Origin: Roseivirga sp.
Lineage (GTDB): Bacteria > Bacteroidota > Bacteroidia > Cytophagales > Cyclobacteriaceae
NCBI GenBank assembly: GCA_965230105.1
Contig: CBDDKG010000005.1
Location: 188,489-252,488 of the forward strand
Reading direction: 5' to 3'
DNA: 64,000 bases
In this document: piece after piece, positions 45,843 through 59,776 of the stretch
Layout of the letters: each line of letters begins with the position of its first letter
Position numbering within the stretch: position 1 is the first letter of the stretch
Position numbers and translations under genes: made by a program
The notes under the pieces: model-generated
The model's database searches: none
Told to the model about the DNA's origin: nothing
What the model saw: only the letters and a program-made list of their open reading frames with translations

Positions 45843-45906
45843 ACTACTACCACTAGTGATTCTGATACTAGTACTAGTGACTCACTTATACCAGCACTAG
45901 TGATTT
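45843..45906 (+). promoter_or_regulatory. Array of three ACTAGTGA direct repeats upstream of the heme-receptor promoter
   Basis: ACTAGTGA at 45852, 45873 and 45896; palindrome ACTAGTACTAGT at 45867-45878. Confidence 0.65.
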
Positions 45907-45939: not shown

Positions 45940-45958
45940 ATTAAGAATGATTCTAAAT
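45940..45958. promoter_or_regulatory. Fur-like 19-bp palindromic operator
   Basis: ATTAAGAATGATTCTAAAT, between the -7 box and the ATG. Confidence 0.72.
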
Positions 45959-45960
45959 AA

Positions 45961-48228
45961 ATGCAAAGAGCATCATTTATCGCGCTTCTGGTTATCTCAA
46001 CAAGCTTTCAGGCCTTGGGTCAGCGCCTCCTTTTCACCAATGCTGAGACAAAGGAACCAGTATCTGGTGCTGTCATCAAGCTGGAATCAATTGCTGGAAA
46101 AGGTAGTGCTGTAGCCGTCACCAATGCCAGGGGTGAGGTGACAATTGATCTCGCTTTTCCACTGATCATTCAGACCAGTCATCTGGCATATGAAGCCTAT
46201 CAAGACACCCTATATAACAGTGATGTCAATGCATTTCAGCTGGTGCCCAGAATCACGGAGTTAGATCAGGTGGTGGTCACAGGTCAGTTTAATCCTCAAG
46301 CGGCCAGTAATTCCATTTTCAGAGTACAAACAATCGATTCAAAAGAGTTTAAACAGCGTGGTGCTTTCAACCTACAAGAGGTACTCAGCAACCAGTTAAA
46401 TATTCGGGTGAGTCAGGATTTAGCCATTGGCAGTTCATCTATTAGTCTGCAGGGTATTTCAAGTCAGAATGTAAAGATCCTGGTAGACGGTATTCCACTA
46501 GTTAACCGCTCGGGTAATGGCAATGGTGCAGACCTGAGTCAGATTAATCTCCAGAATATTGAGCGAATAGAAATTGTGGAAGGCCCTATGGCCGTGAATT
46601 TTGGGGCTAACGCATTGGCTGGTGTGATTAACCTCATCACCAAAAAGGACTTCAATAGTAGAACAGAAGTTAGACTCGATATTCAGTCAGAGACGGCTGG
46701 CAATGAGTTGGGTCTGGATGCAGGTCGGCATGTGCAATCCATAGGAGTTAACCACAGGTTGAATGAGAAGTGGTCATTTCTAGTGAGCGCTCAGCATAAT
46801 GATTTCTTAGGCTTTCAGGGGAACGCTGGTGTCAGGCAGAATGAATGGAATCCGAAAAGACAGTGGTTAGGGAACGGCTTGCTGAGGTATCAGTCTGATA
46901 ACCATAGTCTACATTATCGCTTTGATGCACTCAATGAGCTTATTCAAGACTTTGGAGCAGCTCAAAACAACTTCTTGCCTTCAGGAGAAAATCAGCCCTT
47001 TGCTATTGATGAAACCTATGATTCTAGAAGGTATTCTCATCAGCTGCAGGCGGAAGGAAGATTACCCTTCCTAAATCGATATACTGCCTTTGCTTCCTTT
47101 TCTGATTTCGAAAGAGATAAGAGACGCTTTACCAAGAATATTGTCACGGGTGCCGAACAGTTGACAAACGGAGATGGTGATCAAGACCTAAGTACCTATG
47201 GCGTATGGGAGTTTGGTGGAACAGGCTTTTTAAGTCCTGCTAATGCCTTTGACTTACAAGTAGGCTACCAAATTTCACTGGAGCGTGTAGGAGGGGGGAG
47301 AATCCTGGATGCGGAACAGGGCATCGAAGAGTATGCAGTTTATACCTCTGCAGAATGGAGACCGGCTGCAAAGGCCACTTTTAGACCCGGTCTTCGTTTT
47401 ACCACGAATAGTGTCTTTGGCAGCCAGCTGATTCCATCACTGCAGTTTAAGTACCATCAAAGCGAGGCCTTACAATTCAGAATTTCTTATGGAGGCGGCT
47501 TTAGAGCGCCATCGGTACGGGAGCTTTACTTTGAGTTTGTCGATTCCAATCATAGGATTTTCGGAAACCCTGACCTGACGCCTGAGACCTCGAATCATTT
47601 CAGCCTGAATACTATTTCTAAGTATAAGATTGCATCTACCAATGTGGATGTAGATCTGAATCTTTTCTACAATAGTATTAGTGATCAGATCTCTTTGGGG
47701 CAGAATGTCAATGATATTACCAGCACCACCTACCTGAATATTGAGCGTTTTAAAACCTTGGGGCTCACCCTGACCCAGAAGGCTCAGTTCGGGGCGCTGT
47801 CTGCGAATATTGGCTTTTCTTATATCGGCCGTTTCAATAGAATTTCAGATAATGAGGAGGGTCTGGACGACTTCTTTTACTCTCCAGAGTTCAATGCTAA
47901 TCTTTCTTATCGCTTTTCAAAAAGCCGTACCTCCATCAATGCCTTTTACAAGTACACCGGCCGACTGCAGTCCTATTTCACAGATACAAACAGTCAGAAT
48001 GAGCAGGTGATCAGCATTGGAGAAATCAGTGATTTCCACTGGTTGGATGCTACCATAATTCAGCCTTTGAGTAATGCTTTCGAGCTGACCCTGGGTGCAC
48101 AAAATATTTTAAATGTAATCAATATCAATAATTCAGGTGTGGGTGGAGGAGCCCACTCCGGAGGACCTTCTGTACCCATATCCTATGGAAGATCTTATTT
48201 CTTAAAACTAAGCTATAATCTAAAATAA
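45961..48228 (+). CDS. TonB-dependent receptor, HmuR/FepA-CirA-like (probable heme receptor)
   Basis: CarboxypepD-like N-terminus, LDQVVVTGQ TonB box, ILVDGIP, IERIEIVEGP and RAPS.RELY motifs; adjacent to hmuY. Confidence 0.88.
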   Translation: MQRASFIALLVISTSFQALGQRLLFTNAETKEPVSGAVIKLESIAGKGSAVAVTNARGEVTIDLAFPLIIQTSHLAYEAYQDTLYNSDVNAFQLVPRITELDQVVVTGQFNPQAASNSIFRVQTIDSKEFKQRGAFNLQEVLSNQLNIRVSQDLAIGSSSISLQGISSQNVKILVDGIPLVNRSGNGNGADLSQINLQNIERIEIVEGPMAVNFGANALAGVINLITKKDFNSRTEVRLDIQSETAGNELGLDAGRHVQSIGVNHRLNEKWSFLVSAQHNDFLGFQGNAGVRQNEWNPKRQWLGNGLLRYQSDNHSLHYRFDALNELIQDFGAAQNNFLPSGENQPFAIDETYDSRRYSHQLQAEGRLPFLNRYTAFASFSDFERDKRRFTKNIVTGAEQLTNGDGDQDLSTYGVWEFGGTGFLSPANAFDLQVGYQISLERVGGGRILDAEQGIEEYAVYTSAEWRPAAKATFRPGLRFTTNSVFGSQLIPSLQFKYHQSEALQFRISYGGGFRAPSVRELYFEFVDSNHRIFGNPDLTPETSNHFSLNTISKYKIASTNVDVDLNLFYNSISDQISLGQNVNDITSTTYLNIERFKTLGLTLTQKAQFGALSANIGFSYIGRFNRISDNEEGLDDFFYSPEFNANLSYRFSKSRTSINAFYKYTGRLQSYFTDTNSQNEQVISIGEISDFHWLDATIIQPLSNAFELTLGAQNILNVININNSGVGGGAHSGGPSVPISYGRSYFLKLSYNLK

Positions 48229-48229
48229 C

Positions 48230-49315
48230 ATGATACTCAAAAAAGTAACCTATTACCTGGCTGTCATTGGCCTGTTTGCCATGACCGCCTGTTCTAACGA
48301 TGATACCCCGACTATCGATCCGCCAGCTACAGGAGCCATTATTGATCCTGCCGTGGGTGGTCCAACCCAGCCGAATCAGGTTTTCATTGACTTGTCAAAG
48401 GAGAGTCAGTCTTCTGTAAGCAGAAACTCATGGGATCTCGGTTTTCATACGGGTACTGATTTCAGAGTTATTCTGAATAATTCGGCCAGTACTTTGGCCA
48501 GATCCATTGACAAAAACGATTTGAATGCCATCACTGCTGCAGATACTGCTGGTTTTGGTGCACAACTTAATATTGATGCCATCTTTGGAGCCCTATTTGG
48601 TCCACCACCAGCATGGTTATTCAGTGCTGCAAGCTGGTCTGATGACCCTTCAGGTGACTTAACCAAGACCGCTATTGCTGAAGTATCAGCTACGGATGCT
48701 GATAATCAAGTATATATCATCAACAGAGGAAAGAACCCTGATGGTTCTCCAAGAGGTTGGATGAAGATCCGTACCCTGAGAAACTCAAATGGCTATACCC
48801 TGCAGTATGCCGAAATTGGTGCGACAAGTTTCCAGGAACTGAATATCACGAAAAACAATGATGTTGACTTTGTTCCGGTAAGTTTCGACAATGGTATTAT
48901 CACTTCAATTCCTGAAAAGAATGATTGGGATTTTGTCTTTACCATTTTCACAAACCTCTTACCGATAAGTCAGGACGTTTCCATCCCTTACGCCATTAGA
49001 GATTACATCTTAATCAATGCCAATAGAGTAGAGGTGGCCATGGTAGAGATCGCGGCTGGCACTAGCTACGAAGACTTTGCCATTGGTGCCGTTGGTGCTT
49101 TGAATTTTTCCACTGAAGTAGCCGCCATTGGTAGTGGCTGGAGAAATGTGGCACAACCAGGTTCTAACGTTGAAACCGGCATTAAAGATGACATCTTCTA
49201 TGTGGTGAAGGATACTGACGAGAACTATTACAAACTACGCTTTACTCGCCTTGTGGATGCGCAACCCGGAGACAGAGGAAACCCTCAGTTTCAGTATGAA
49301 CTGCTAGTCCAATAA
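48230..49315 (+). CDS. hmuY: HmuY family lipoprotein
   Basis: Lipobox MTAC followed by acidic SNDD; NQVFIDLS, WDLGF, WDFVF and YYKLRF motifs. Confidence 0.82.
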   Translation: MILKKVTYYLAVIGLFAMTACSNDDTPTIDPPATGAIIDPAVGGPTQPNQVFIDLSKESQSSVSRNSWDLGFHTGTDFRVILNNSASTLARSIDKNDLNAITAADTAGFGAQLNIDAIFGALFGPPPAWLFSAASWSDDPSGDLTKTAIAEVSATDADNQVYIINRGKNPDGSPRGWMKIRTLRNSNGYTLQYAEIGATSFQELNITKNNDVDFVPVSFDNGIITSIPEKNDWDFVFTIFTNLLPISQDVSIPYAIRDYILINANRVEVAMVEIAAGTSYEDFAIGAVGALNFSTEVAAIGSGWRNVAQPGSNVETGIKDDIFYVVKDTDENYYKLRFTRLVDAQPGDRGNPQFQYELLVQ

Positions 49316-49349: not shown

Positions 49350-50261
49350 ATGAAACAATTATTAATTATCGCCCTATGTGTCATCAGCATGAGTACATGG
49401 GCACAAAGCAAAAAGAAGCAGGATGTCGCTGCGATAAAAGAAATGTGTGGGTGCTACAAGGTAAGGTTCAATTTTGCCGAAACCTTCGCACCAGACAGGC
49501 GCTATGAGTTCCATAAAAACTATAAATCAAAAGGCCTTGAGTGGGTTCAGTTGGTCGAGGAGGATAAAAACAAGGTCTCTTTGCAGCACCTGCTGATTGT
49601 GGCTCCTAAGACGATCGTGAAGCATTGGAGACAGGACTGGATCTATCAAAACACTGACTTTTATACCTATGACAAGGATAACAGTTGGAAGTATAAAGCG
49701 CTTTCAAAGAAAGACGTCAAAGGCCAGTGGTCTCAGAAAGTTTATCAGGTAGATGGTAGTCTTCGTTACGAAGGTTCGTCAAGCTGGGTACATGTAGATG
49801 GTCGACACTATTGGGAGAATACTGCTGATTCTCCTCTACCAAGACGTGAGTATTCCAAACGGACGGATTACAACTTAATGGTAAGAACTAACCGTCAGGA
49901 GTTGACACCAGAAGGTTGGGTACATGAGCAGGATAATGATAAGGTCATCAGGTCTGAGAAAGGTGACAAGTTATTAGCCCAAGAGAAAGGCTGGAATACC
50001 TATACAAAAGTAGATGACAGTGAGTGTAAAGATGCTCACGAATGGTGGGCGAAAAATAAGCAATACTGGTCTGATGTTAGACAGGTGTGGGATGAAGTTT
50101 TTGCATCAAAATCAACTTTGACCTTTAAGCGAAAAGTGGACGAGAAGGTTATGTACGAAAGAATTTTTGCCCTGGGAGATAAGGTCTTGGAAGCTGATGC
50201 TTATGACAGCGAAGCCATTCAGAAAGAGTTGAATGATATTATAAACGCATATCGTGATTAG
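49350..50261 (+). CDS. DUF6607-like exported protein
   Basis: Signal peptide; MCGCYKV.F.FAETF, KHWRQDW, WSQKVYQVD, PLPRREY and GWVHEQDN motifs. Confidence 0.72.
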   Translation: MKQLLIIALCVISMSTWAQSKKKQDVAAIKEMCGCYKVRFNFAETFAPDRRYEFHKNYKSKGLEWVQLVEEDKNKVSLQHLLIVAPKTIVKHWRQDWIYQNTDFYTYDKDNSWKYKALSKKDVKGQWSQKVYQVDGSLRYEGSSSWVHVDGRHYWENTADSPLPRREYSKRTDYNLMVRTNRQELTPEGWVHEQDNDKVIRSEKGDKLLAQEKGWNTYTKVDDSECKDAHEWWAKNKQYWSDVRQVWDEVFASKSTLTFKRKVDEKVMYERIFALGDKVLEADAYDSEAIQKELNDIINAYRD

Positions 50262-50499: not shown

Positions 50500-51036
50500 C
50501 TAATTGGCCATCACTGAATCGCTAATAATGGGAAACTCCTCTTGGATCTGTTCCAGCCAGGCATCGACACGGTCCACTGTCAGGTCTCTTTGGTTGTCTT
50601 CATCGACAGCTAAACCCATAAACCAGCCAGGCTCAAACTCTGCAACAGACTCTAGGTAGTCATAACCTTCGGTAGGCCAGACACCAATAATCTCTCCTCC
50701 ATTTTGGGCGATGACATTGCCAAGAATACCAACGCCATCAATAAAGAACTCGCCATAGCCTATCTGGTCCCCCAGGCCAAATAGAGCTACTTTTTTGCCA
50801 CTAAAATCGATGGTTTGGAAGGTCTCAAAAAAGCTCTCCCAGTCACTTTGCAAATCGCCATCAAACCAGGTAGACAGGCCAAGAATTAGTTTATCATACT
50901 GATCAAAATCCGACTTCTTCACCTTGTAAACGTCATAAACGTCTAGCATTTCCTCTCCTAATTTTTTGATGATAAGTTCAGATACATATTCAGTAGAGCC
51001 CGTATCTGAGCCATAAAACAAACCAATTTTTTCCAT
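50500..51036 (-). CDS. fldA: Long-chain flavodoxin
   Basis: IGLFYGSDTGSTE, LGLSTW..GDLQSDW, ALFGLGDQ.GY..FF.D and GL.VDEDNQ motifs. Confidence 0.95.
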   Translation of the reverse strand: MEKIGLFYGSDTGSTEYVSELIIKKLGEEMLDVYDVYKVKKSDFDQYDKLILGLSTWFDGDLQSDWESFFETFQTIDFSGKKVALFGLGDQIGYGEFFIDGVGILGNVIAQNGGEIIGVWPTEGYDYLESVAEFEPGWFMGLAVDEDNQRDLTVDRVDAWLEQIQEEFPIISDSVMAN

Positions 51037-51039
51037 GTA

Positions 51040-51390
51040 TTATTTTCTGTTTCCTGTACTGTCTTTTTGTGTTGGCAAAGCCAATAATCTACTTTCTATT
51101 ATCAGCTGAGTTTCGATGAGCAATGATTCCAATTGATTTAACTGTTCTTCTGAAAGCACGAAGTGAATGTTAAGACGCTCTATTTGGACGAGTGCCTTCT
51201 TGTTTAACAAGGTGTTGAACCACTGAAAACTTTGTTGTTGAGTTGTTATAAAGTCTTTGAAGTAAGCGATGCCAAGAGGACTAAGTTCAAGACTCATATA
51301 CTCGGACTTCACCAAAAATGAATCTCCCACATCACTGACAGCGATGCTCCCAAAAGGATTTTCATTAATGACGTGTCCAATTCTTGGCAT
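51040..51390 (-). CDS. Divergent, Cys-free DUF6686-like paralog
   Basis: Same length and the same beta-beta-beta-alpha x2 pattern as the two upstream paralogs; shares the C-terminal helix pattern (LIETQLII vs LEEAMLML). Confidence 0.5.
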   Translation of the reverse strand: MPRIGHVINENPFGSIAVSDVGDSFLVKSEYMSLELSPLGIAYFKDFITTQQQSFQWFNTLLNKKALVQIERLNIHFVLSEEQLNQLESLLIETQLIIESRLLALPTQKDSTGNRK

Positions 51391-51582
51391 TTACTTACTT
51401 TTTCCTTTGAGCCTTATCTTTTCGTTTAGGTAGGGGCACTGAATTTTGGCAATGCCCTCTAGTTCAGCATCTGTTAATGAAGTGTTGCCTGCAATAACCT
51501 CATTGATGACCCTGTCAAAATCTATATTGAGAATCGATTGACCACGATTCGAATTTGTGCCTTGAATAGATCCTTTATCCAT
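51391..51582 (-). CDS. Small (63 aa) hypothetical protein with a QCPYL motif
   Basis: ATG start; its stop abuts the next gene's ATG; fills the operon gap. Confidence 0.6.
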   Translation of the reverse strand: MDKGSIQGTNSNRGQSILNIDFDRVINEVIAGNTSLTDAELEGIAKIQCPYLNEKIRLKGKSK

Positions 51583-51631
51583 CTTCCTATATGATTTAGT
51601 ATTTAGTTTGATCCATCAAGGACTTAGTTTC

Positions 51632-51955
51632 TTAGCTAATAAGTGTTTTGTTAATCTGATCCATCAGCATTGCCTGCTCGATTTCACTTATGATGTATTG
51701 CGTTTCTTCCTGGGTGAAACCCATACCATGACCGTCAAATTTTGAATTACTGATTACAGCTTTCAGGCCTTGTGGATGCCTTGCAGTGTAGTGCTGAATG
51801 GTGAGCGATTTCAGTATCTTCAAGAATGCTCTTAGTTCTCGCCTCGTAAAGGTCATGAAGAGGTTCTTATAATTCACATTGTAGTGGTTACAACACTTAC
51901 ACCTATAAATCTGGATGTCTTCCGACTCATGCAGTATGATTATTTTGTGTGTCAT
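51632..51955 (-). CDS. DUF6686-like protein
   Basis: CKCC..Y.V.YKN motif; 4-nt overlap with the upstream paralog. Confidence 0.7.
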   Translation of the reverse strand: MTHKIIILHESEDIQIYRCKCCNHYNVNYKNLFMTFTRRELRAFLKILKSLTIQHYTARHPQGLKAVISNSKFDGHGMGFTQEETQYIISEIEQAMLMDQINKTLIS

Positions 51956-52284
51956 TCTTTTATTTCTAGAGATTCGTGCACTTGTAACATGAGCATGGCC
52001 TCTTCCAAAACCGTAACGAGTTCTCCAAACTCTTCTAGGTTAAAACAAAATTGTATGTCAGGATGGCAAGTTTCCAGTACCGTATAGTCCTGACCATTTG
52101 GAAACCTGGTGGCGTTTTTAAAGAACTCCGAACTTGTAACTCCCTGATAAAAATTGTTGAACTCCTCAATTTCAAATCCTACAAGTATGTTTTTATAGTA
52201 TAGGCCTACGCGCTTACAACACTTGCATAAGGAAATATTTAAGTGAGGGCTATCTACTAAGATTGTTGGACTACATTGACTCAT
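51952..52284 (-). CDS. DUF6686-like protein
   Basis: CKCCKRVGLYYKN and IQFCFNLEEF..L...LEEA motifs. Confidence 0.72.
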   Translation of the reverse strand: MSQCSPTILVDSPHLNISLCKCCKRVGLYYKNILVGFEIEEFNNFYQGVTSSEFFKNATRFPNGQDYTVLETCHPDIQFCFNLEEFGELVTVLEEAMLMLQVHESLEIKE

Positions 52285-52551: not shown

Positions 52552-52590
52552 TCGCTAGTTGTAGTAGTATTGCTTACTACTAATAGTGAT
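52551..52590. promoter_or_regulatory. Upstream motif of P2 (ACTACTACAACTAGCGATT plus a TAGTAGTA-N5-TACTACTA inverted repeat)
   Basis: 17/19 identical to 45843-45861; perfect 8-bp inverted repeat at 52562-52582. Confidence 0.55.
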
Positions 52591-52629: not shown

Positions 52630-54834
52630 CTAGTAGCAGTCGGTCTTAATCTGACCACACATTTTCAGGTGATTCAGGCTGAGTCCGGAACCTTTTTTGA
52701 GGTGCTCAGCAAGCACCTTCTCAACTGCCTGTTGCATGCTGAGTCCACCACAAATCATAATGACATGTCCCTGGCTGAGGGCTGTGGTAATCCACCTTAA
52801 CTCTTTGCTGATGGCATCCTGAACATATTGTTTCTCATCGCCTTCTCTTGAGAAGGCTGTGATGAGCTTATTCAACTTTCCAGTGGTAACGGCTCTGTCT
52901 AATTGTTCTTGGTAGAGTTGATAAGAAGCTGTATTCCGCCCTCCCCAAAACAGTGAGATATGCTGTTTTAGTGGGCTATCATTGATCATGCCGAGAAAAG
53001 GAGCAATGCCTGTTCCATTCGCAATCATAATAACCCCCGGTGCTTCTTTAGGTAGGTGAAATGCTGGATTGGTCTTCAGATTACCCAATACCTTATTGCC
53101 AATATTTGATTCACTTAAATAGGACGAGCATATGCCCATATCATGCTTTCTGATGCTGAGCGTAATCGTTGATGCTTCGTTATCCACAGACATGGAATAC
53201 AGGCGCTCGCGGCTTTCCCCTGGAGGTATTACAGATAATAGGTCTCCCGACTGGTATGCTTTCAGTTTGCGTTTTGAAGACTTTAAAGTCAGAAGAAACG
53301 TTTGATCTGATGAGTTAGGAGAATCACATTTTTCTGTGACCAAGAATGGAAGTTGTTTCCTTTTTGGAATGGCCAGATCCTGTTCATCAATCGAGATTTT
53401 CTGGCCCGTTTTCGTTCCTAAGGCTTGAACCCAGTGCATGAACTCGTCTTTGGACTCATTGTCCACCTTGTGCAATGGTACAAGCTGAGTAGCCTCTGTT
53501 CCCTGGCTTAACTGAGCATTGGACTCAATAGCAAACTGGCAAAAGTCAGGATAGGCCGTACTCCCAAAGCCTAAAACTGCATATTGGAAGGGTTGTTGTT
53601 GCTTTGTGTTTCGAACTTTATGAATAAACTTTTTGGCATTTTCAGGCGCTTCCCCCACACCATAGGTGGAGGTCAAGACGAGTAATTGCTCCATATTCTT
53701 AAAGGACTCATATTCGTCCATGCCGGTTAGGTGTACTTTGTGTTGAAGCTTGAGCAAACTCTTTTGCAAAGCCCTGGCAAAACGCATGGTACTGCCCTGT
53801 TCGGAACCTACCAGAATGATAATTTCGCTATCATCTTTGCTGTATGGATTTATGATTTTACTCTTATCTCTTTTCAGGTAAATGGCAAAACCACTATAGA
53901 TAAAGAATAGAATACCGATTCCGGTAAGTCCCAATACAGACGCCCAAATGATAGTGCCTTCTCCCGTATGAAGGTTAAAGCTTAACTGATATGCTAGCTT
54001 TACCAAAGGGTAGTCAAGCTCACTGATCACTGTCCCATTAAACTGATTGACCAGGAGTTCCTTATTCTTAAGTTTGACTTCGTAGTATTCCTCAGGGAAT
54101 TCGGCAAATGGGAAGTTGAGTTCTCTTAGATCTTCAAGTGTGTAGGTATTGAATGGCTCAAAGGAGGATAGGGGTTGTTTCGGTTCTTCTGTGAGTCGGG
54201 TCTCATCTATTGAGTGATCGAGTGGTGGTATGACAACCAAATTGAACCGCTCCATAAATAGATAGGTGCCAGTGGCGCCAAGCACTATGATGGATAGGAT
54301 CAGCCAGCGGCTGAAGCGTGTGTGGTAATCCTTGTAGAAGTCGTTTTTAATGACTTTCGAAAAGTAATTTTTGATACCACCCTGCTTCTTAAGTATCAGA
54401 AAGAAACCGCTAAGTGCCATAAACAAGAGTATGACAGAGACCAAGCCTATGAGAAACCTTCCGATCTGACCCAGAAATAGAGATCGGTGCAAACTGCGGC
54501 TAAATTCAAAGATTCTAGGGGTTCGGATAAGCTCACCAATTTTCAGACCTGTGAATGGATCGACATAAAAAGGGGTGTCTGAATCAATGGTTTGGATAGA
54601 AACAAAGCCGTTCTTGTCACGAGAAATGTTAAGAACTTCTTCATGCTGAGCTGTAATGTTGGTGATGGCCTCACTCAATAGTAGGTCATCTGCTTTTTTT
54701 ACCTGATAGGGATGTGTCTTTTGATAGATAGGCTCAAAAGACAAGATAGCGCCTGTAATAGACGCTATCAGAAGAAATATCGTACTGATTATAGCCAGCC
54801 AGAGGTGTGTGACCCGCCACAATGAGAGTGACAT
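52630..54834 (-). CDS. PepSY-TM + flavodoxin + FAD/NAD(P)H (FNR) fusion oxidoreductase
   Basis: WRVTHLWL, SLHRSL and LHTGEG membrane His; GSEQGST and STYGVGEAP flavodoxin motifs; RLYSM, GICS, GTGIAPF, YVQD and ICGG FNR motifs. Confidence 0.88.
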   Translation of the reverse strand: MSLSLWRVTHLWLAIISTIFLLIASITGAILSFEPIYQKTHPYQVKKADDLLLSEAITNITAQHEEVLNISRDKNGFVSIQTIDSDTPFYVDPFTGLKIGELIRTPRIFEFSRSLHRSLFLGQIGRFLIGLVSVILLFMALSGFFLILKKQGGIKNYFSKVIKNDFYKDYHTRFSRWLILSIIVLGATGTYLFMERFNLVVIPPLDHSIDETRLTEEPKQPLSSFEPFNTYTLEDLRELNFPFAEFPEEYYEVKLKNKELLVNQFNGTVISELDYPLVKLAYQLSFNLHTGEGTIIWASVLGLTGIGILFFIYSGFAIYLKRDKSKIINPYSKDDSEIIILVGSEQGSTMRFARALQKSLLKLQHKVHLTGMDEYESFKNMEQLLVLTSTYGVGEAPENAKKFIHKVRNTKQQQPFQYAVLGFGSTAYPDFCQFAIESNAQLSQGTEATQLVPLHKVDNESKDEFMHWVQALGTKTGQKISIDEQDLAIPKRKQLPFLVTEKCDSPNSSDQTFLLTLKSSKRKLKAYQSGDLLSVIPPGESRERLYSMSVDNEASTITLSIRKHDMGICSSYLSESNIGNKVLGNLKTNPAFHLPKEAPGVIMIANGTGIAPFLGMINDSPLKQHISLFWGGRNTASYQLYQEQLDRAVTTGKLNKLITAFSREGDEKQYVQDAISKELRWITTALSQGHVIMICGGLSMQQAVEKVLAEHLKKGSGLSLNHLKMCGQIKTDCY

Positions 54835-54838
54835 ACAG

Positions 54839-55339
54839 TTATTTACTAGCCGATTTTTGAATTAACTGCACATAGCGGATGTAGCCATTGCCTTTTAATC
54901 GCTGACCCGCCATGCTATCTGTCAAGTCTATCTCTAGATCCTTTTCGTGATAATCCTGATCTTCTACCGCAGTCTCAAACCTTAATTTGTAACCGGCATT
55001 AACCATTGAAGCATCAAGGCTTACTGTAGCGACTTTTCTTCCCCCACTAGAGATAGAGGCGCCAGCCATACCGTCAATTTCTACTTTATTGCTCGGATAG
55101 AATTCATACCATGCCGGTAGATCTTCGTACCAATCCTCATCATCGCCATGTACAGACACGGTCTTCACATATTCTCCTTCAGTATTCAATACTGAAACCA
55201 CAACATAGGCACCTTCGCCACCATAGTTGGTCAGCTGGATGAGGCATTTGTATGTGACAGCTTCGTTGTTAATCGATTTAAATCCAAAGCTGATGCTTGC
55301 TGCCAATAAGAGAACAGCGATTAATAATTTGTTTTTCAT
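54839..55339 (-). CDS. DUF2271 family exported protein
   Basis: Signal peptide; NYGGEGAYVV.S, WY.DL..W, IDGMAGASI and RFETAVED motifs. Confidence 0.8.
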   Translation of the reverse strand: MKNKLLIAVLLLAASISFGFKSINNEAVTYKCLIQLTNYGGEGAYVVVSVLNTEGEYVKTVSVHGDDEDWYEDLPAWYEFYPSNKVEIDGMAGASISSGGRKVATVSLDASMVNAGYKLRFETAVEDQDYHEKDLEIDLTDSMAGQRLKGNGYIRYVQLIQKSASK

Positions 55340-56856
55340 TATTTCTGAGTTTTCAAAAATTCAATATTGGTGATGTTGGCCCCTAAAATTTCGTTTTCCA
55401 TGGCCAGGTCATATGCAGACTCTTCGAATTCAGTTCTGACGTTTTTATCGGCTCCAGAAGCGATTAAGAATTTGAGTAAATCGCTGGTTTCTGATAGCAT
55501 GGCTGCATGGTGTAAGATCGTTTGGCCATTCGCATCTTTTGCGTTGATGTCAATGCCCAGAGCAATAAGCCTTTTCAGAAATTCAATGTTCTGTCGTGAA
55601 ATGGCCACATGCAGCAGCGTCTGCCCATCAAATTGTGTTGTTTTGGGATTGTAACCTTTGGACATTAAGAACTTCATCTTTTGATCGAAGAGATCAAGAT
55701 TATTTCTCGTGCCATCTACGACATGGTAACCTAGGTCATAAACTCCATCTGCTTTGACTTCTATTTGAGCTCCGGCATCGGCAAGAAATTCGACTACGTC
55801 CATATTATTGTATTTGATGGCTCGCATAAAGCTGGAAAAGCCTTCTTTATTCTTGCTATTGATGTCCTTAGTCTTATTTGCCAAGAACTTTACTTTTTCC
55901 AGTCCACCTCTGGCTGAGGCATTGATCAGGGGAGTGTTACCATCTTTATCTACCTGGTTGACATCAGCGCCCTTATCGATGAAGTATTGGAGGGTTTTGA
56001 CATCATTGGAGCGGAATGCAAGGTTGTGTAGCGCATTTCTGCCTGACTTAGTCGATTTCGCAGGATCAAGCCCCAGACTTTCAAAGTATTTGAATAATAA
56101 GATTGGAGATGCTTCATTTTCACCAAAGTTTCTGTTAGTCGCAAAGTAGAAAGCGTTCTCCCCCGTCTTTGGGTTAGCCTTGAAGTCGACTTTGTAATCA
56201 TCAACAAGCTTTTGTAATAACTCTTTATTCCGAGTGGAAGCCGCATAGTGAAAGAGGCCATTACCATTATCATCCGTCTCATGGATGTCTACACCTAAGC
56301 CCATGAAGTAATCAAGCATTTCGGTGTTTTCGAGTCGACCTGCGAAAGTCATTAAGACATTTCTACCATTTCGCGGATTCTTCGCTGCAATGTCTAAGCC
56401 ATTGGCCATAGACAGTTCGTATACCTTTTTGTTAGCTTGACCTGAACGTGCTGCAAACATCATGGCATTGTTGCCGCCATCATCGACTAGCTCAATTTTG
56501 ATTCCACTTGACAGTAAATATTCCATCACTTCAGTATTGCCCCTTAAGGCAGCCCAGTGGAGATAAGTTCGGGCATCATGGGTGATGGTATTGACTTCGC
56601 CTACTTGCTTAACCAAATACTTGATTACATCTGTAGCATTATTCTCAAGTATGGCATAGGTAGTAGGGTCAAACATTGAAGAAGTAAACTCAGTAGGTGA
56701 GTGGCCTTCCTTTACTTTTTGTTTCACCTCTTCTAAAGAGGGTTGTAATCTCCAAAAACCTCTGTCTAGAAATTTATTCGACTGTTGTGCAGTGGCGGTG
56801 AACTGGATAAGAACACAGCAAATCAATAAAATCCTGCTAAGTAAACTGACTCTCAT
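55339..56856 (-). CDS. Exported ankyrin-repeat protein
   Basis: Signal peptide; many T.LH.A..G...V..LL..GA.IN..D..G repeats. Confidence 0.9.
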   Translation of the reverse strand: MRVSLLSRILLICCVLIQFTATAQQSNKFLDRGFWRLQPSLEEVKQKVKEGHSPTEFTSSMFDPTTYAILENNATDVIKYLVKQVGEVNTITHDARTYLHWAALRGNTEVMEYLLSSGIKIELVDDGGNNAMMFAARSGQANKKVYELSMANGLDIAAKNPRNGRNVLMTFAGRLENTEMLDYFMGLGVDIHETDDNGNGLFHYAASTRNKELLQKLVDDYKVDFKANPKTGENAFYFATNRNFGENEASPILLFKYFESLGLDPAKSTKSGRNALHNLAFRSNDVKTLQYFIDKGADVNQVDKDGNTPLINASARGGLEKVKFLANKTKDINSKNKEGFSSFMRAIKYNNMDVVEFLADAGAQIEVKADGVYDLGYHVVDGTRNNLDLFDQKMKFLMSKGYNPKTTQFDGQTLLHVAISRQNIEFLKRLIALGIDINAKDANGQTILHHAAMLSETSDLLKFLIASGADKNVRTEFEESAYDLAMENEILGANITNIEFLKTQK

Positions 56857-56881: not shown

Positions 56882-56900
56882 ATTTAGACTAATTCCAAAC
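56882..56900. promoter_or_regulatory. Fur-like 19-bp operator
   Basis: ATTTAGACTAATTCCAAAC, 18/19 identical to 52495-52513. Confidence 0.72.
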
Positions 56901-56930
56901 AAAGGTAAAGCGCAAAGGTTCAAGGATCAA
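56900..56930 (-). promoter_or_regulatory. Sigma70 promoter P3 of the ankyrin-DUF2271-PepSY operon
   Basis: Minus strand TTG-N20-TACCTTTG. Confidence 0.75.
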
Positions 56931-56951: not shown

Positions 56952-56967
56952 TCACTAGTACTAGTAT
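56952..56967 (-). promoter_or_regulatory. Upstream 16-mer ATACTAGTACTAGTGA
   Basis: Exact match to 45865-45880, in the same orientation relative to transcription. Confidence 0.65.
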
Positions 56968-57025: not shown

Positions 57026-57490
57026 TCAGCGCAACTTTTTTAATGCCCTCTTAAGTTGTTTGGCATTGACAAAAGCATCCTGTTGATGGAGAATTTCATA
57101 TTTGGCATTGAGAAAAACAAGGGTGGGATAGGCCACAACTCCGTCTTTGGCCCCAAGTTGCTGTGCCAGCTCATGAGTACCCGTATTGGTACCATTCGGT
57201 TTGTATTTAAAAGTTTGACCCAGAAAGGTGACATCTGTTTTGGATTCTCCGTCAAAGCTTACGAAGTGAAAGTCTTTTGTAAGCAGAGACTTGATCTCCT
57301 CATTTTGAAAAGTGGTCTGCTTCATATTCTCACAGAAGTTACACCAGGGGGCATGCAAGAAAACGACCACAGGCCTTGGGTCTGTCTTTTGTACAGCTTC
57401 TAGCTTCTCAAAACTTAGAGCATAGTCTTGTGCATGAGCTACGCTCAATCCCAGTGTTATATTCAATATAAAAGCTAAAGCAATTTTCAT
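57026..57490 (-). CDS. Exported thioredoxin-fold protein
   Basis: Signal peptide; APWCNFC active site and YPT cis-Pro loop. Confidence 0.85.
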   Translation of the reverse strand: MKIALAFILNITLGLSVAHAQDYALSFEKLEAVQKTDPRPVVVFLHAPWCNFCENMKQTTFQNEEIKSLLTKDFHFVSFDGESKTDVTFLGQTFKYKPNGTNTGTHELAQQLGAKDGVVAYPTLVFLNAKYEILHQQDAFVNAKQLKRALKKLR

Positions 57491-57493
57491 TAC

Positions 57494-59776
57494 TTAACGA
57501 ACTGTAAACCTTAAACCTAAGAAACCTCTGATGCCCTGGTTTGAAGCATATACGTAGGTTGGGTCAAAAGTAAGACCATTAGGGTTATTTGGTGTGGGAA
57601 TTACCTGCCCATCATTGCCGAAGGTCACATTCCTGTCAAAGGGATCGAATGGCCGGGCGATGCTATTATCGGCAGGAGTGAAATTCAATAGGTTTTTAAC
57701 TCCTCCATAAACCTCCCATTGATCACCGAACTTCTTGGTCAGCTGGATGTTTTGAATACTAAACCATGGAGATTCTGCAGGTCGATCGTCTAATTCGCCT
57801 AAGAGTGGCAAGCGCATTGGACCATACAAATTACCAGTATAATCCACCTGAATACCATTGCTGAACGTATAGCCTATACTCCAAACACCTTGCACTGATT
57901 CAGTGAGAATTTGTCGGGTTCTTTCACCGTTTTCCTCTACCGTGACATCCATTACGGTCAGACCGCCATTGATTTTCAATCCATTGTCCCAGACCATGTC
58001 CACATTGACAGAAATACCACGTGAAATAGAGTTTCCCTCCAGATTACTATAAATGATTTTGTTTGGATCAGTCTCGTAATCTGGTAGAATACGATTTGTA
58101 AAGTAGGTATAGAAGGCAGTGGCGTCCAGACCAATATAGGTGCTATTGCTGGTATAGAACTTCTTTACAAAGTTGATGTTGGTATTCCAAGACGTTTCAG
58201 GTCTTAGCTCCCCATCAAACTCCACTGTTCTCGCACCAGAGAGTGCCGCGTGGTCTTCCGTAAAGACATTGGCTACCCTATAGCCATTGCCAGCACTGAT
58301 GCGAAGAATGTTCCTTTTATTCGGAGAGTTCCATTTGTAATTGACCCTGGGAGTCACAATACCACCATGAAGGCTATTATAGTCATAGCGCATACCCAGC
58401 AATAGTTTATTGTTGGGTTTTAAAGAAATCTCATCTTGAATAAATACGCCTGGCAGATGGGTTCTAGATGGATTATTGTCATTGCTGTCATCATTAAATG
58501 TTGCAGGTGTATTGTCATCGTAATAAGTGTAACGATAGACAGTTCCTGCCACAATATCATGCTTGCCCATGCTTTTATTCCATGTCAATTGCCCAAAGGC
58601 AACATATTGATCGGCATCGTACTCGGTGTCTCCATAAAATGAATCTTGCACATGGCCATTAGCACTGAACTGGAAATTCAATAGCTCGCTCGTTGGCAAT
58701 TGGTATACACCAAATGTCTCCCACCGGCTGGTGTATATGCTTTCTCCATATACATCTGTACCCCCTCTGTTTTCGCTATTCCACTGGATTTCACCACCCC
58801 AGCGATCCTCATAAACATAGCGACCTGCTATTGAGAATACTCGATTGTCTTTGCGCTGAAAGTTGATTTTGTTGAAGATAGAGATCCTATTCTGAAGGGT
58901 TAAATCAGTGAAGTTGTCACCATTATTATCGATTGGGTTTTGGTAATTGAAATAGTTAATACCCAATAATGACTGTGTTCTTTTACCCAGATTGTACCTC
59001 AATCCAATATCAGTATTTACCTCACCCCAGTCTGTAGCGAAAACATCTACTGAGGCCTGAGGAGCATTGCCCGGTTTTTTGGTGATAATATTGACTAGGC
59101 CACCTACGGCTTCTGATCCATATAAGGTAGAGGCCGGTCCTTTGACAATCTCAACTCGCTCAATCAGAGATTGCGGAATACCCGTTAGGCCATAAACCGT
59201 AGATAAGCCACTGACAATGGGCATACCATCGATCAATACCATGGTGTATGGCCCTTCGAGACCATTGATGTGAATATCTCCCGTATTGCAGACATTACAG
59301 TTTAACTGTGGCCTAACACCATTTACATTTTGTAGCGACTCAAAGATGGAAGGTGTAGGATTGGCTTTGAAGAACTTTTGACTATATACTTCCACAGGAA
59401 CTGGGCTTTCCAGTTTGGACACTTCTTTCAGAGTACCAGAAACCACGATATCATCGAGCGCATTAATTTTTTCTACCAGGTCGAAAGATAAGGTCAAGTC
59501 AGGTGTCTCAGTACTGAGTCTAACAGCTTGACTAATTTTTTCATAACCGACCATGGAAACCACGAGCGTGTAACTTCCATAGGGTACGCTCTCAATGCTA
59601 AAAGCACCGTTTTCATCGGATACATCACCGTAAGAAGTACCCAATAAACCTACATTCACCAATACCATTGGGGTGCCTTGTGAAGACAGGGTTCCTTTAA
59701 TTGAGCCCTCCTGTGCCCAAGCGGAAAAGGAGAATAAAACGAAGAAAAAACCGAATAGAAACCTGTTTAGCCTCAT
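57494..59776 (-). CDS. TonB-dependent receptor with a plug CxxC (probable divalent-metal receptor)
   Basis: LDDIVVSGT, RPQLNCNVCNTGDIHINGLEGPY, IERVEIVKGPASTLYGSEAVGG and terminal GLRFTVR. Confidence 0.9.
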   Translation of the reverse strand: MRLNRFLFGFFFVLFSFSAWAQEGSIKGTLSSQGTPMVLVNVGLLGTSYGDVSDENGAFSIESVPYGSYTLVVSMVGYEKISQAVRLSTETPDLTLSFDLVEKINALDDIVVSGTLKEVSKLESPVPVEVYSQKFFKANPTPSIFESLQNVNGVRPQLNCNVCNTGDIHINGLEGPYTMVLIDGMPIVSGLSTVYGLTGIPQSLIERVEIVKGPASTLYGSEAVGGLVNIITKKPGNAPQASVDVFATDWGEVNTDIGLRYNLGKRTQSLLGINYFNYQNPIDNNGDNFTDLTLQNRISIFNKINFQRKDNRVFSIAGRYVYEDRWGGEIQWNSENRGGTDVYGESIYTSRWETFGVYQLPTSELLNFQFSANGHVQDSFYGDTEYDADQYVAFGQLTWNKSMGKHDIVAGTVYRYTYYDDNTPATFNDDSNDNNPSRTHLPGVFIQDEISLKPNNKLLLGMRYDYNSLHGGIVTPRVNYKWNSPNKRNILRISAGNGYRVANVFTEDHAALSGARTVEFDGELRPETSWNTNINFVKKFYTSNSTYIGLDATAFYTYFTNRILPDYETDPNKIIYSNLEGNSISRGISVNVDMVWDNGLKINGGLTVMDVTVEENGERTRQILTESVQGVWSIGYTFSNGIQVDYTGNLYGPMRLPLLGELDDRPAESPWFSIQNIQLTKKFGDQWEVYGGVKNLLNFTPADNSIARPFDPFDRNVTFGNDGQVIPTPNNPNGLTFDPTYVYASNQGIRGFLGLRFTVR

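Follow-up and report, generated by a model that had tools for sequence, protein, structure and literature searches.

An ankyrin-DUF2271-PepSY diflavin operon behind a Fur-type box as a candidate periplasmic iron reductase of Bacteroidota

The DNA analysed here, in the following called the window, is a stretch of 64,000 nucleotides (nt; 64 kb) of Roseivirga sp. (assembly GCA_965230105.1, contig CBDDKG010000005.1, positions 188,489 to 252,488 of the forward strand). On its minus strand, three tightly packed genes were called as open reading frames (ORFs) in the order ankyrin, DUF2271, reductase fusion, encoding an ankyrin-repeat protein of 505 amino acids (55339-56856), a DUF2271 protein of 166 amino acids (54839-55339) and a PepSY_TM-flavodoxin-FNR fusion of 734 amino acids (52630-54834). 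Base 55339 is common to the stop of the ankyrin gene and the start of the DUF2271 gene, and a gap of 4 nt (54835-54838) lies between the DUF2271 gene and the fusion gene. An earlier interpretation made from the letters alone (the sequence-only reading) had described this packing as a 1-nt overlap and a 4-nt gap, and the coordinates agree. The closest named homologues stem from Roseivirga sp. 4D4, with 85% identity for the reductase and 89% for the ankyrin protein. In the following, this triad is considered as a candidate for an iron-regulated reductase acting in the periplasm.

The N-terminal half of the fusion matches PepSY_TM (PF03929) with an E-value of 1e-32 over residues 9-322, whereby the match extends from 3 to 295 of the 295 profile positions and therefore comprises the whole domain. 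According to Pfam and to an AlphaFold2 (AF2) model with a predicted local distance difference test score (pLDDT) of 84.9, this part (53869-54810, minus strand) consists of four transmembrane (TM) helices and two periplasmic PepSY beta-domains. The model showed long helices at residues 3-32, 123-151, 166-196 and 295-320 and beta-rich inserts at 67-101 and 236-274, followed by an alpha/beta domain for flavin mononucleotide (FMN) and an FNR-type domain. Since the number of helices is even and the N-terminus lies inside, the diflavin module should be located in the cytoplasm. In an alignment of 19 homologues with 41-85% identity, the histidines H10 (codon 54805-07), H116 (54487-89), H171 (54322-24) and H289 (53968-70; all minus strand) are invariant, and they are predicted to be the ligands of two b haems. 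With this topology, H10 and H171 would lie at the inner edge of the membrane, and H116 and H289 at the outer edge.

In the structure of FoxB, four TM helices are combined with two periplasmic PepSY domains, and conserved histidines bind two b haems at the edges of the bilayer (Josts et al. 2021). A comparison of FoxB (PDB 7ABW) with the PepSY_TM domain of the fusion gave an E-value of 0.13 for the single sequence and of 0.001 with a profile, and within this weak match H10 and H116 align to histidines of FoxB. Due to this low direct similarity, the assignment to PepSY_TM rests mainly on the Pfam model. A six-TM Ferric_reduct domain (PF01794) was not matched on the fusion by Pfam. Homology to the NOX/FRE reductases was therefore rejected, and the NOX/FRE-like identity proposed in the sequence-only reading has to be regarded as an analogy, since the membrane part is a PepSY_TM domain of the FoxB family.

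In the C-terminal half, Pfam determined Flavodoxin_1 (2.3e-18, residues 340-468), FAD_binding_6 (0.0025, residues 511-582) and NAD_binding_1 (1.2e-11, residues 603-705). The flavodoxin-like FMN domain (53431-53817, minus strand, assumed to be cytoplasmic) contains a GSEQGST loop and the motifs TYGxGxxP (with Y391) and GFGSxxYxxFC (with Y428). From what is known of cytochrome P450 reductase (CPR), the sulfite reductase flavoprotein (SiR-FP) and CysJ, we take both tyrosines to be flavin stacking residues. The adjoining domain (52630-53304, minus strand, likewise cytoplasmic), assigned by Pfam, motifs and fold search to the FNR type that binds flavin adenine dinucleotide (FAD) and reduced nicotinamide adenine dinucleotide phosphate (NADPH), carries RxYS (544-547), GTGIAP (607-612), SR..K.YVQ (662-672), C695 and a C-terminal D-C-Y. 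The motif SR..K.YVQ presumably represents the 2'-phosphate site, as judged from CPR and CysJ, which points to NADPH rather than NADH. Judged by these motifs, the cytoplasmic half carries the full set of signatures of an NADPH diflavin reductase. Its best matches in sequence and fold are the reductase of nitric oxide synthase (NOS), CPR and the sulfite reductase flavoprotein; in the fold search with the model of the fusion, diflavin reductases dominate and FoxB is absent from the top 50. No match to FAD_binding_1 (PF00667), the connecting domain, was found on the fusion by Pfam, and about 40 residues lie between the domains. The single chain of PepSY, flavodoxin and FNR domains ending in DCY, as it had been proposed before, is confirmed by the Pfam matches and the C-terminus.

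The protein of 166 amino acids, which the sequence-only reading had called exported and left without a name, was assigned to DUF2271 (Pfam, 1.2e-34) and is encoded by one copy only in the genome. Its N-terminus is basic and then hydrophobic, which was read by eye as a Sec signal; with the signal peptide of the ankyrin protein described below, both exported partners of the reductase could be retained. Residue S95 (55055-57), located within D89-G-M-A-G-A-S95, is the predicted site of flavinylation by ApbE. Among 78 DUF2271 orthologues, position 95 is serine or threonine in 100% and G93 is conserved in 99%, and the consensus of the motif is I-[D/S]-A-I-[T/S]-G-A-[T/S]. The first position of the motif is occupied by threonine or serine in 75 of these 78 sequences and by alanine in 2. 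For a DUF2271 protein, flavinylation at [S/T]GA[S/T] by its own ApbE was shown experimentally (PMC8238504).

Three ApbE genes are located elsewhere in the genome, namely next to a ZIP transporter, in a thioredoxin-ApbE-DUF3570 cluster and next to a GFO/IDH oxidoreductase. The ApbE of the thioredoxin cluster, found by the genome scan (G000:C2:393201-394034; L082: 1435-2364), is the one closest (38-41%) to the ApbE proteins encoded directly 3' of the reductase in other Bacteroidota. This cluster itself corresponds to another class of Méheust. A second ApbE (G000:C6:234085-234918, L081), whose gene adjoins the one for the ZIP-family metal transporter, has an N-terminus resembling a membrane anchor. 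Since DUF2271 should need an ApbE and this is encoded elsewhere, the conduit is not fully self-contained. The proposal of an electron path from NAD(P)H to the periplasm with exported partners therefore fits the motif set, the four histidines and the two signal-like N-termini, while its self-contained character had to be given up. DUF4198 (PF10670) gave no match in the genome, which is 98.5% complete.

The ankyrin protein consists entirely of ankyrin repeats (Ank_2, Pfam, 9.3e-65), about 14 in number. A hydrophobic signal peptide comprising residues 1-23 (56788-56856) and ending in ATA|QQ was read by eye. The AF2 model (pLDDT 94.2, predicted template modelling score 0.86) showed a single uninterrupted solenoid and no further domain. 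A Foldseek search of the model against the PDB resulted in generic long ankyrin proteins and designed ankyrin repeat proteins (DARPins) only and gave no functional clue; the database names for the family are all generic, too. When the conservation of the family was projected onto those positions of each repeat that canonically contact a target, near-invariant residues were found at the two ends only, in repeats 1-3 (N27, L30, P39, F62, H93, D94 and R96, together with Y98 and W101) and in repeat 14 (F477, E479, E487 and N488), whereas repeats 4-13 vary on this face. Two patches result, an N-terminal one, H93-D94-x-R96-x-Y98..W101 (56554-56580), and a C-terminal acidic one with F477, E479, E487, N488 and E489 (55390-55428, both minus strand). 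The arrangement of two conserved end patches with a long variable stretch between them suggests an adaptor for two partners, which the solenoid would hold apart or together.

The conservation of the triad was determined by a scan of the species genomes of GTDB, for which the alignment of the reductase was used and from which 80 loci were kept. These span Flavobacteriales, Cytophagales, Sphingobacteriales, Chitinophagales and Marinilabiliales. A full-length ankyrin orthologue (33-53% identity, about 500 amino acids) adjoins DUF2271 in about 76 of the 77 related loci, with the ankyrin gene directly upstream of DUF2271 and DUF2271 directly upstream of the reductase. Four loci do not show this arrangement. 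Three of them are cut by contig ends, and the fourth, a metagenome-assembled genome of Capnocytophaga with an orphan reductase gene (L017), is the one complete locus lacking ankyrin and DUF2271; its neighbours are unrelated. In a check independent of the reductase, 300 sampled Bacteroidota genomes were searched for DUF2271 and the flanks were extracted. All 15 strong matches adjoin an ankyrin gene, and 14 of the 15 adjoin the reductase as well. The ankyrin protein is therefore a constant partner of DUF2271 in Bacteroidota, and the emphasis that the sequence-only reading had placed on it was justified, since this protein is the part of the system that is both conserved and unreported. ApbE adjoins the triad in 24 of the 77 related loci, in each of these 24 directly after it (Pfam, 1.5e-78); among the 15 independently sampled DUF2271 loci, 10 have an adjacent ApbE.

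Upstream of the ankyrin gene, a pattern scan revealed a palindrome resembling a Fur box, TTGGAATTAGTCTAAA (56883-56898, minus strand), about 25 nt before the ATG. A Bacteroidota -7 element, TACCTTTG (56900-56907, minus strand), lies just upstream of the palindrome. The Fur box of Riemerella anatipestifer is a 19-bp palindrome, ATTTAGAATTATTCTAAAT, supported there by electrophoretic mobility shift assay (PMC5609570), and the predicted box of the window, GTTTGGAATTAGTCTAAAT, is identical to it in 16 of 19 positions. A putative 19-bp Fur-type box is thus present before the ankyrin gene within about 100 bp of its start codon. In the 64 kb, the palindrome occurs at three promoters only (45941, 52496 and 56883), which corresponds to 5 strand-hits compared to 0.23 expected. 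The first of them precedes the RhuR-RhuA-RhuH genes and the second a DUF6686-flavodoxin operon. A scan for sigma-70 promoters and terminators was uninformative for Bacteroidota. As a separate observation, the octamer ACTAG(T/C)GA precedes all three Fur-box promoters at a distance of 50-90 nt (45852-45903, 52552-52559 and 56952-56959), in the first case as three copies in tandem and in the other two as a single copy. Its placement is striking, while its count across the window is not significant alone (5 compared to 2.5 expected).

The related loci showed a similar picture. With a strict pattern, 20 of 76 loci showed a Fur-type box in the 350 nt before the first gene of the operon, and in many others a box is located about 3.4-4.2 kb ahead of the start of the ankyrin gene, where by its position it would precede the gene of the TonB receptor that heads the operon. 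As the 350-nt upstream stretches made up less than 2% of the scanned DNA, Fur-type boxes are enriched at the operon starts. In R. anatipestifer CH-1, the five consecutive genes B739_0173-0177 respond to iron limitation with a 2- to 12-fold induction (log2 values of 3.3, 3.6, 2.4, 3.1 and 1.0) and are annotated as TonB receptor, hypothetical, Ankyrin, 'Predicted periplasmic protein' and 'Nitric oxide synthase' (PMC5429918). In Pfam, DUF2271 bears the title 'Predicted periplasmic protein', and diflavin modules are frequently labelled 'Nitric oxide synthase'. Furthermore, Fur binds and represses the promoter of B739_0173 (PMC7976709).

The genes behind the box at 45941 encode a RhuR-like TonB receptor (45961-48228), a lipoprotein similar to HmuY/RhuA (48230-49315) and a haemophore of the RhuH family (DUF6607; 49350-50261; all plus strand). 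The last of these matches Pfam DUF6607 with 1.5e-114 and, over residues 5-276, the RhuH structure PDB 8XJC with an E-value of 3.1e-89. The window accordingly encodes a full RhuR-RhuA-RhuH set for haem uptake. RhuH is a haemophore of R. anatipestifer, which binds haem via His96 at 34 pM and was found in outer-membrane vesicles (PMC11967795). The Pfam family DUF6607 is still titled as of unknown function, and a literature search on DUF6607 found no paper. The haem-uptake set, the DUF6686-flavodoxin operon (50500-52284, minus strand) and the triad are located side by side, each with the same kind of box. Both the box and the haem-uptake neighbourhood had been overlooked in the sequence-only reading, the conduit idea of which fits the sequence evidence. 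Beyond this genome, the DUF6686-flavodoxin operon is loosely linked to the triad, as DUF6686 genes directly follow the reductase in 8 related loci and directly precede the ankyrin gene in one (L001).

On the other side of the triad, a TonB-dependent receptor and, 3 nt further, an exported thioredoxin-like protein with the motif WCNFC are encoded at 57026-59776 (minus strand). The pair forms a unit of its own, located upstream of the promoter of the triad, and is not kept with the triad elsewhere. Both the thioredoxin-like gene (57026-57490) and the two TonB receptors upstream were considered as parts of the module and rejected, since a spacer of 169 nt with its own promoter and the Fur box lies between. 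The thioredoxin gene accompanies the triad in 1 of the 80 loci only, and is distant there.

In the related loci, different uptake genes were observed. In about 24 loci of marine Flavobacteriaceae, RhuA/HmuY and a TonB receptor point one way and DUF6607, ankyrin, DUF2271 and reductase form a divergent unit, in which the stop of DUF6607 and the start of the ankyrin gene are a few bases apart at most. In 10-13 loci, an AraC regulator, a TonB receptor and a lipoprotein of 445 amino acids without a Pfam match precede the triad. This lipoprotein, possibly a beta-propeller, is encoded between a receptor of 805 amino acids and the ankyrin protein, with the AraC regulator divergent; in the loci L004, L005, L006, L007, L009, L016, L038, L043 and L073, the ankyrin gene is located about 1.4 kb downstream of it. 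The genome G151, which contains a full triad (L098), carries a second ankyrin-DUF2271 pair elsewhere (L099: 5977-12383), located after a TonB receptor, DUF4374 and Peripla_BP_2, with no adjacent reductase. Since DUF4374 is the XusB family of xenosiderophore binders, the context of this pair appears siderophore-like. A link to RhuH was found in four metagenome assemblies, which contain an identical fusion of RhuH/DUF6607 and ankyrin with 785 amino acids (L102-L105: 6001-8358), followed by DUF2271 and the reductase. RhuH is joined there to the N-terminus of the mature ankyrin protein, whose signal peptide is lost. Such a fusion provides good evidence for a joint action of both proteins in the same compartment.

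Altogether, we regard it as rather probable that this operon is repressed by Fur and encodes an NADPH-driven periplasmic reductase for the iron cargo of TonB receptors, with the ankyrin protein as adaptor. Cytoplasmic NADPH would reduce FAD and then FMN in the C-terminal diflavin module, and the electrons would cross the membrane via the two b haems, from H10/H171 on the inner to H116/H289 on the outer side. They would then reach an FMN bound covalently to S95 of the periplasmic DUF2271 protein, the attachment being carried out by an ApbE encoded elsewhere. The reduced flavoprotein would transfer electrons to Fe(III) in the cargo of the receptors, i.e. haem, ferric chelates or both, and the Fe(II) set free could enter via FeoB, which is encoded in the genome. 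The ankyrin protein would be an adaptor specific for Bacteroidota, one end patch of which probably docks to the reductase or DUF2271 and the other to a cargo carrier such as RhuH or the receptor. A ferric or haem reductase is preferred because of the Fur box, the induction in Riemerella, the iron-uptake contexts, FeoB and the precedent of ferric-siderophore reduction by FoxB.

Several points weigh against this assignment. The motif in the window is AGAS and not [S/T]GA[S/T], with an alanine at the first position that is rare among the orthologues, and no ApbE is encoded in the 64-kb window. For the ApbE in the thioredoxin cluster, whose substrates are extracytoplasmic, the ORF lacks an obvious signal peptide. 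FoxB is matched weakly, with a profile E-value of 0.001. Furthermore, the system is patchy, with about 5% of the 300 sampled genomes and mostly one family, and DUF2271 was found in none of the 8 other sampled genomes from the family of the window. The Riemerella genes were equated with the triad by their annotation names only, and the PepSY-like class as a whole is a bioinformatic one, in which DUF2271 flavinylation is the only step shown, in a betaproteobacterium. Haem binding, flavinylation and iron reduction by the triad are what we infer here, as are the binding partners of the ankyrin protein.

A narrower explanation, which we consider possible and clearly less likely than the general one, would be a pathway specific for haem, in which the triad forms the missing periplasmic step of haem uptake by RhuR, RhuA and RhuH in aerobic Bacteroidota. 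The ankyrin protein would take haem from RhuH or the receptor and present it to reduced DUF2271, whereby the ferric haem is reduced and its iron released, or the haem is made transportable. Such a step would be analogous to HmuS, the NADH-dependent haem de-chelatase of anaerobic gut Bacteroides, which represents a precedent (PMC12583661). The close spacing of RhuH and the ankyrin gene, a few bases at most in about 24 loci, and the RhuH-ankyrin fusion lacking the ankyrin signal peptide point in this direction, as does the high affinity of RhuH for haem (34 pM; PMC11967795). An ankyrin protein binding haem is known as well, since Cj1386 of Campylobacter jejuni binds it with a Kd of 7 nM via a tyrosine ligand and is listed as a cytoplasmic haem-trafficking protein (PMC11442138), and the invariant His93 and Tyr98 are located on the ankyrin binding face near the N-terminus, where RhuH is fused. 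The genome encodes FeoB and gave no match to the families of haem oxygenase, HmuS/CobN and HemS, which is only suggestive, as IsdG, HugZ, ChuW and DyP were not searched. On the other hand, many loci of the triad have no haem genes nearby, namely 24 with ApbE only, 10-13 with the other TonB receptor and the lipoprotein and one with DUF4374. The triad-like genes B739_0173-0177 of Riemerella are separate from rhuH-rhuR-rhuA (B739_1415-1417), and no domain similar to a de-chelatase is present in the triad. In its most specific form, the N-terminal His/Asp/Arg/Tyr patch of the ankyrin protein would receive haem from RhuH or the receptor and hold it against DUF2271 and the reductase, which would constitute a new aerobic route of reductive iron release; this we consider slightly less likely again. 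If true, it would be the aerobic counterpart of HmuS, and RhuH would be partly a periplasmic haem carrier and not only a secreted haemophore.

A periplasmic redox task other than iron, such as the reduction of Cu(II) for the assembly of haem-copper oxidases or a repair or defence function similar to MsrPQ, is improbable. Cu(II) reduction of this kind was proposed for CrpH of Bordetella, a PepSY_TM protein, PepSY_TM proteins are not all siderophore reductases (PMC13038864), and the substrate of the DUF2271 systems has not been established (PMC8238504). The Fur-type box, the induction of the triad-like genes of Riemerella under iron limitation and the neighbouring genes for iron and haem uptake all point to iron instead.

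Bacterial ankyrin proteins are often effectors, and sub-threshold NCBIfam matches to Ank effectors of Legionella could indicate an unrelated passenger, e.g. a host-interaction effector that merely lies beside the reductase, yet this identity was rejected with scores far below the cut-offs, and the passenger reading, which is very improbable, is effectively refuted by the synteny, i.e. by the same position of the gene in free-living members of all five orders named above, by its adjacency to DUF2271 in the 15 independent genomes and by the overlap of stop and start.

The interpretation as a periplasmic iron reductase is of relevance, since it is poorly known how iron is released from haem and siderophores after passage of the outer membrane in aerobic Bacteroidota, which include marine degraders as well as pathogens of fish and poultry. 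For Flavobacterium, it was stated that the existence of periplasmic ferric reductases is not known (PMC9618737). The operon would be a widely conserved and iron-regulated candidate for such a reductase. Since the NADPH electron source is built in, this member of the PepSY/DUF2271 class should be unusually easy to reconstitute. Furthermore, two specific and testable hypotheses on protein-protein interactions arise from the obligate ankyrin partner and from the fusion with RhuH, and these links may also change how the RhuH haemophore is seen at present.

A comparison with known systems shows parts of the triad in different combinations. Diflavin reductases such as CPR, CysJ and NOS reductase share the FMN and FAD/NADPH signatures including the motif for the 2'-phosphate of NADPH and the C-terminal aromatic residue, but they comprise a single-helix anchor and a connecting domain, whereas the fusion has a membrane domain predicted to bind haem and lacks the connecting domain. 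The eukaryotic NOX/FRE enzymes combine a di-haem membrane domain and cytoplasmic FAD/NADPH binding in one chain and direct electrons outward, as is predicted for the fusion. Their 6-TM Ferric_reduct domain is of an unrelated fold, while the window encodes a 4-TM PepSY_TM domain, an additional FMN domain and an additional carrier outside that is predicted to hold a covalent flavin. FoxB of Pseudomonas aeruginosa and FpvG have the same PepSY_TM fold and function in periplasmic ferric-siderophore reduction. FoxB lacks a cytoplasmic reductase domain as well as partners of the DUF2271 or ankyrin type, and the donor of its electrons is not established, in contrast to the fusion with its built-in module. 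Cj1386 and AnkB of P. aeruginosa are short and encoded next to catalase genes, whereas the ankyrin protein of the window has 14 repeats, is predicted to be exported and is encoded next to a reductase, so that the likeness lies in the haem context.

With the RhuR-RhuA-RhuH system of R. anatipestifer, the window shares homologues of all three proteins and a Fur-type box, at a distance of 2.4 kb from the reductase gene, and in relatives rhuH is often the first gene of the ankyrin-DUF2271-reductase operon. The published model of RhuH ends with haem crossing the outer membrane (PMC11967795); in that paper, 'ankyrin', 'reductase' and 'operon' have 0 occurrences and no DUF2271 component is mentioned. 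In the literature library searched, no paper was found that links ankyrin with PepSY or DUF2271 in bacteria. Apparently unreported are the obligate ankyrin partner in Bacteroidota, where Proteobacteria usually have DUF4198, the two-patch ankyrin solenoid and the link to the RhuH haemophore at the level of operon and fusion.

The view that the system as such is uncharacterised, as the sequence-only reading had put it, does not hold. The survey of ApbE clusters by Méheust 2021 catalogued 3220 'PepSY-like' clusters, 2833 of them with DUF2271 and 1500 with DUF4198, as well as 1077 PepSY-like genes with an NAD-binding domain, and iron reduction was proposed there (PMC8238504). Fusions of COG3182 members with sulfite reductases were noted by Josts et al. 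2021. By its domains, the core of the triad, i.e. the PepSY_TM-diflavin fusion and DUF2271, belongs to this published flavinylation-associated class. The class described by Méheust 2021 and Huang 2024 (PMC11334425) has the same PepSY_TM domain, the exported DUF2271 with a site of the ApbE type, which is a predicted one in the window, and the fusion to an NAD-binding domain, and it is likewise linked to iron, Fur and TonB receptors. In the main text of both publications ankyrin is absent, and the usual partners of the class are ApbE and DUF4198, while the cluster of the window contains neither of these and has the ankyrin protein as a constant partner.

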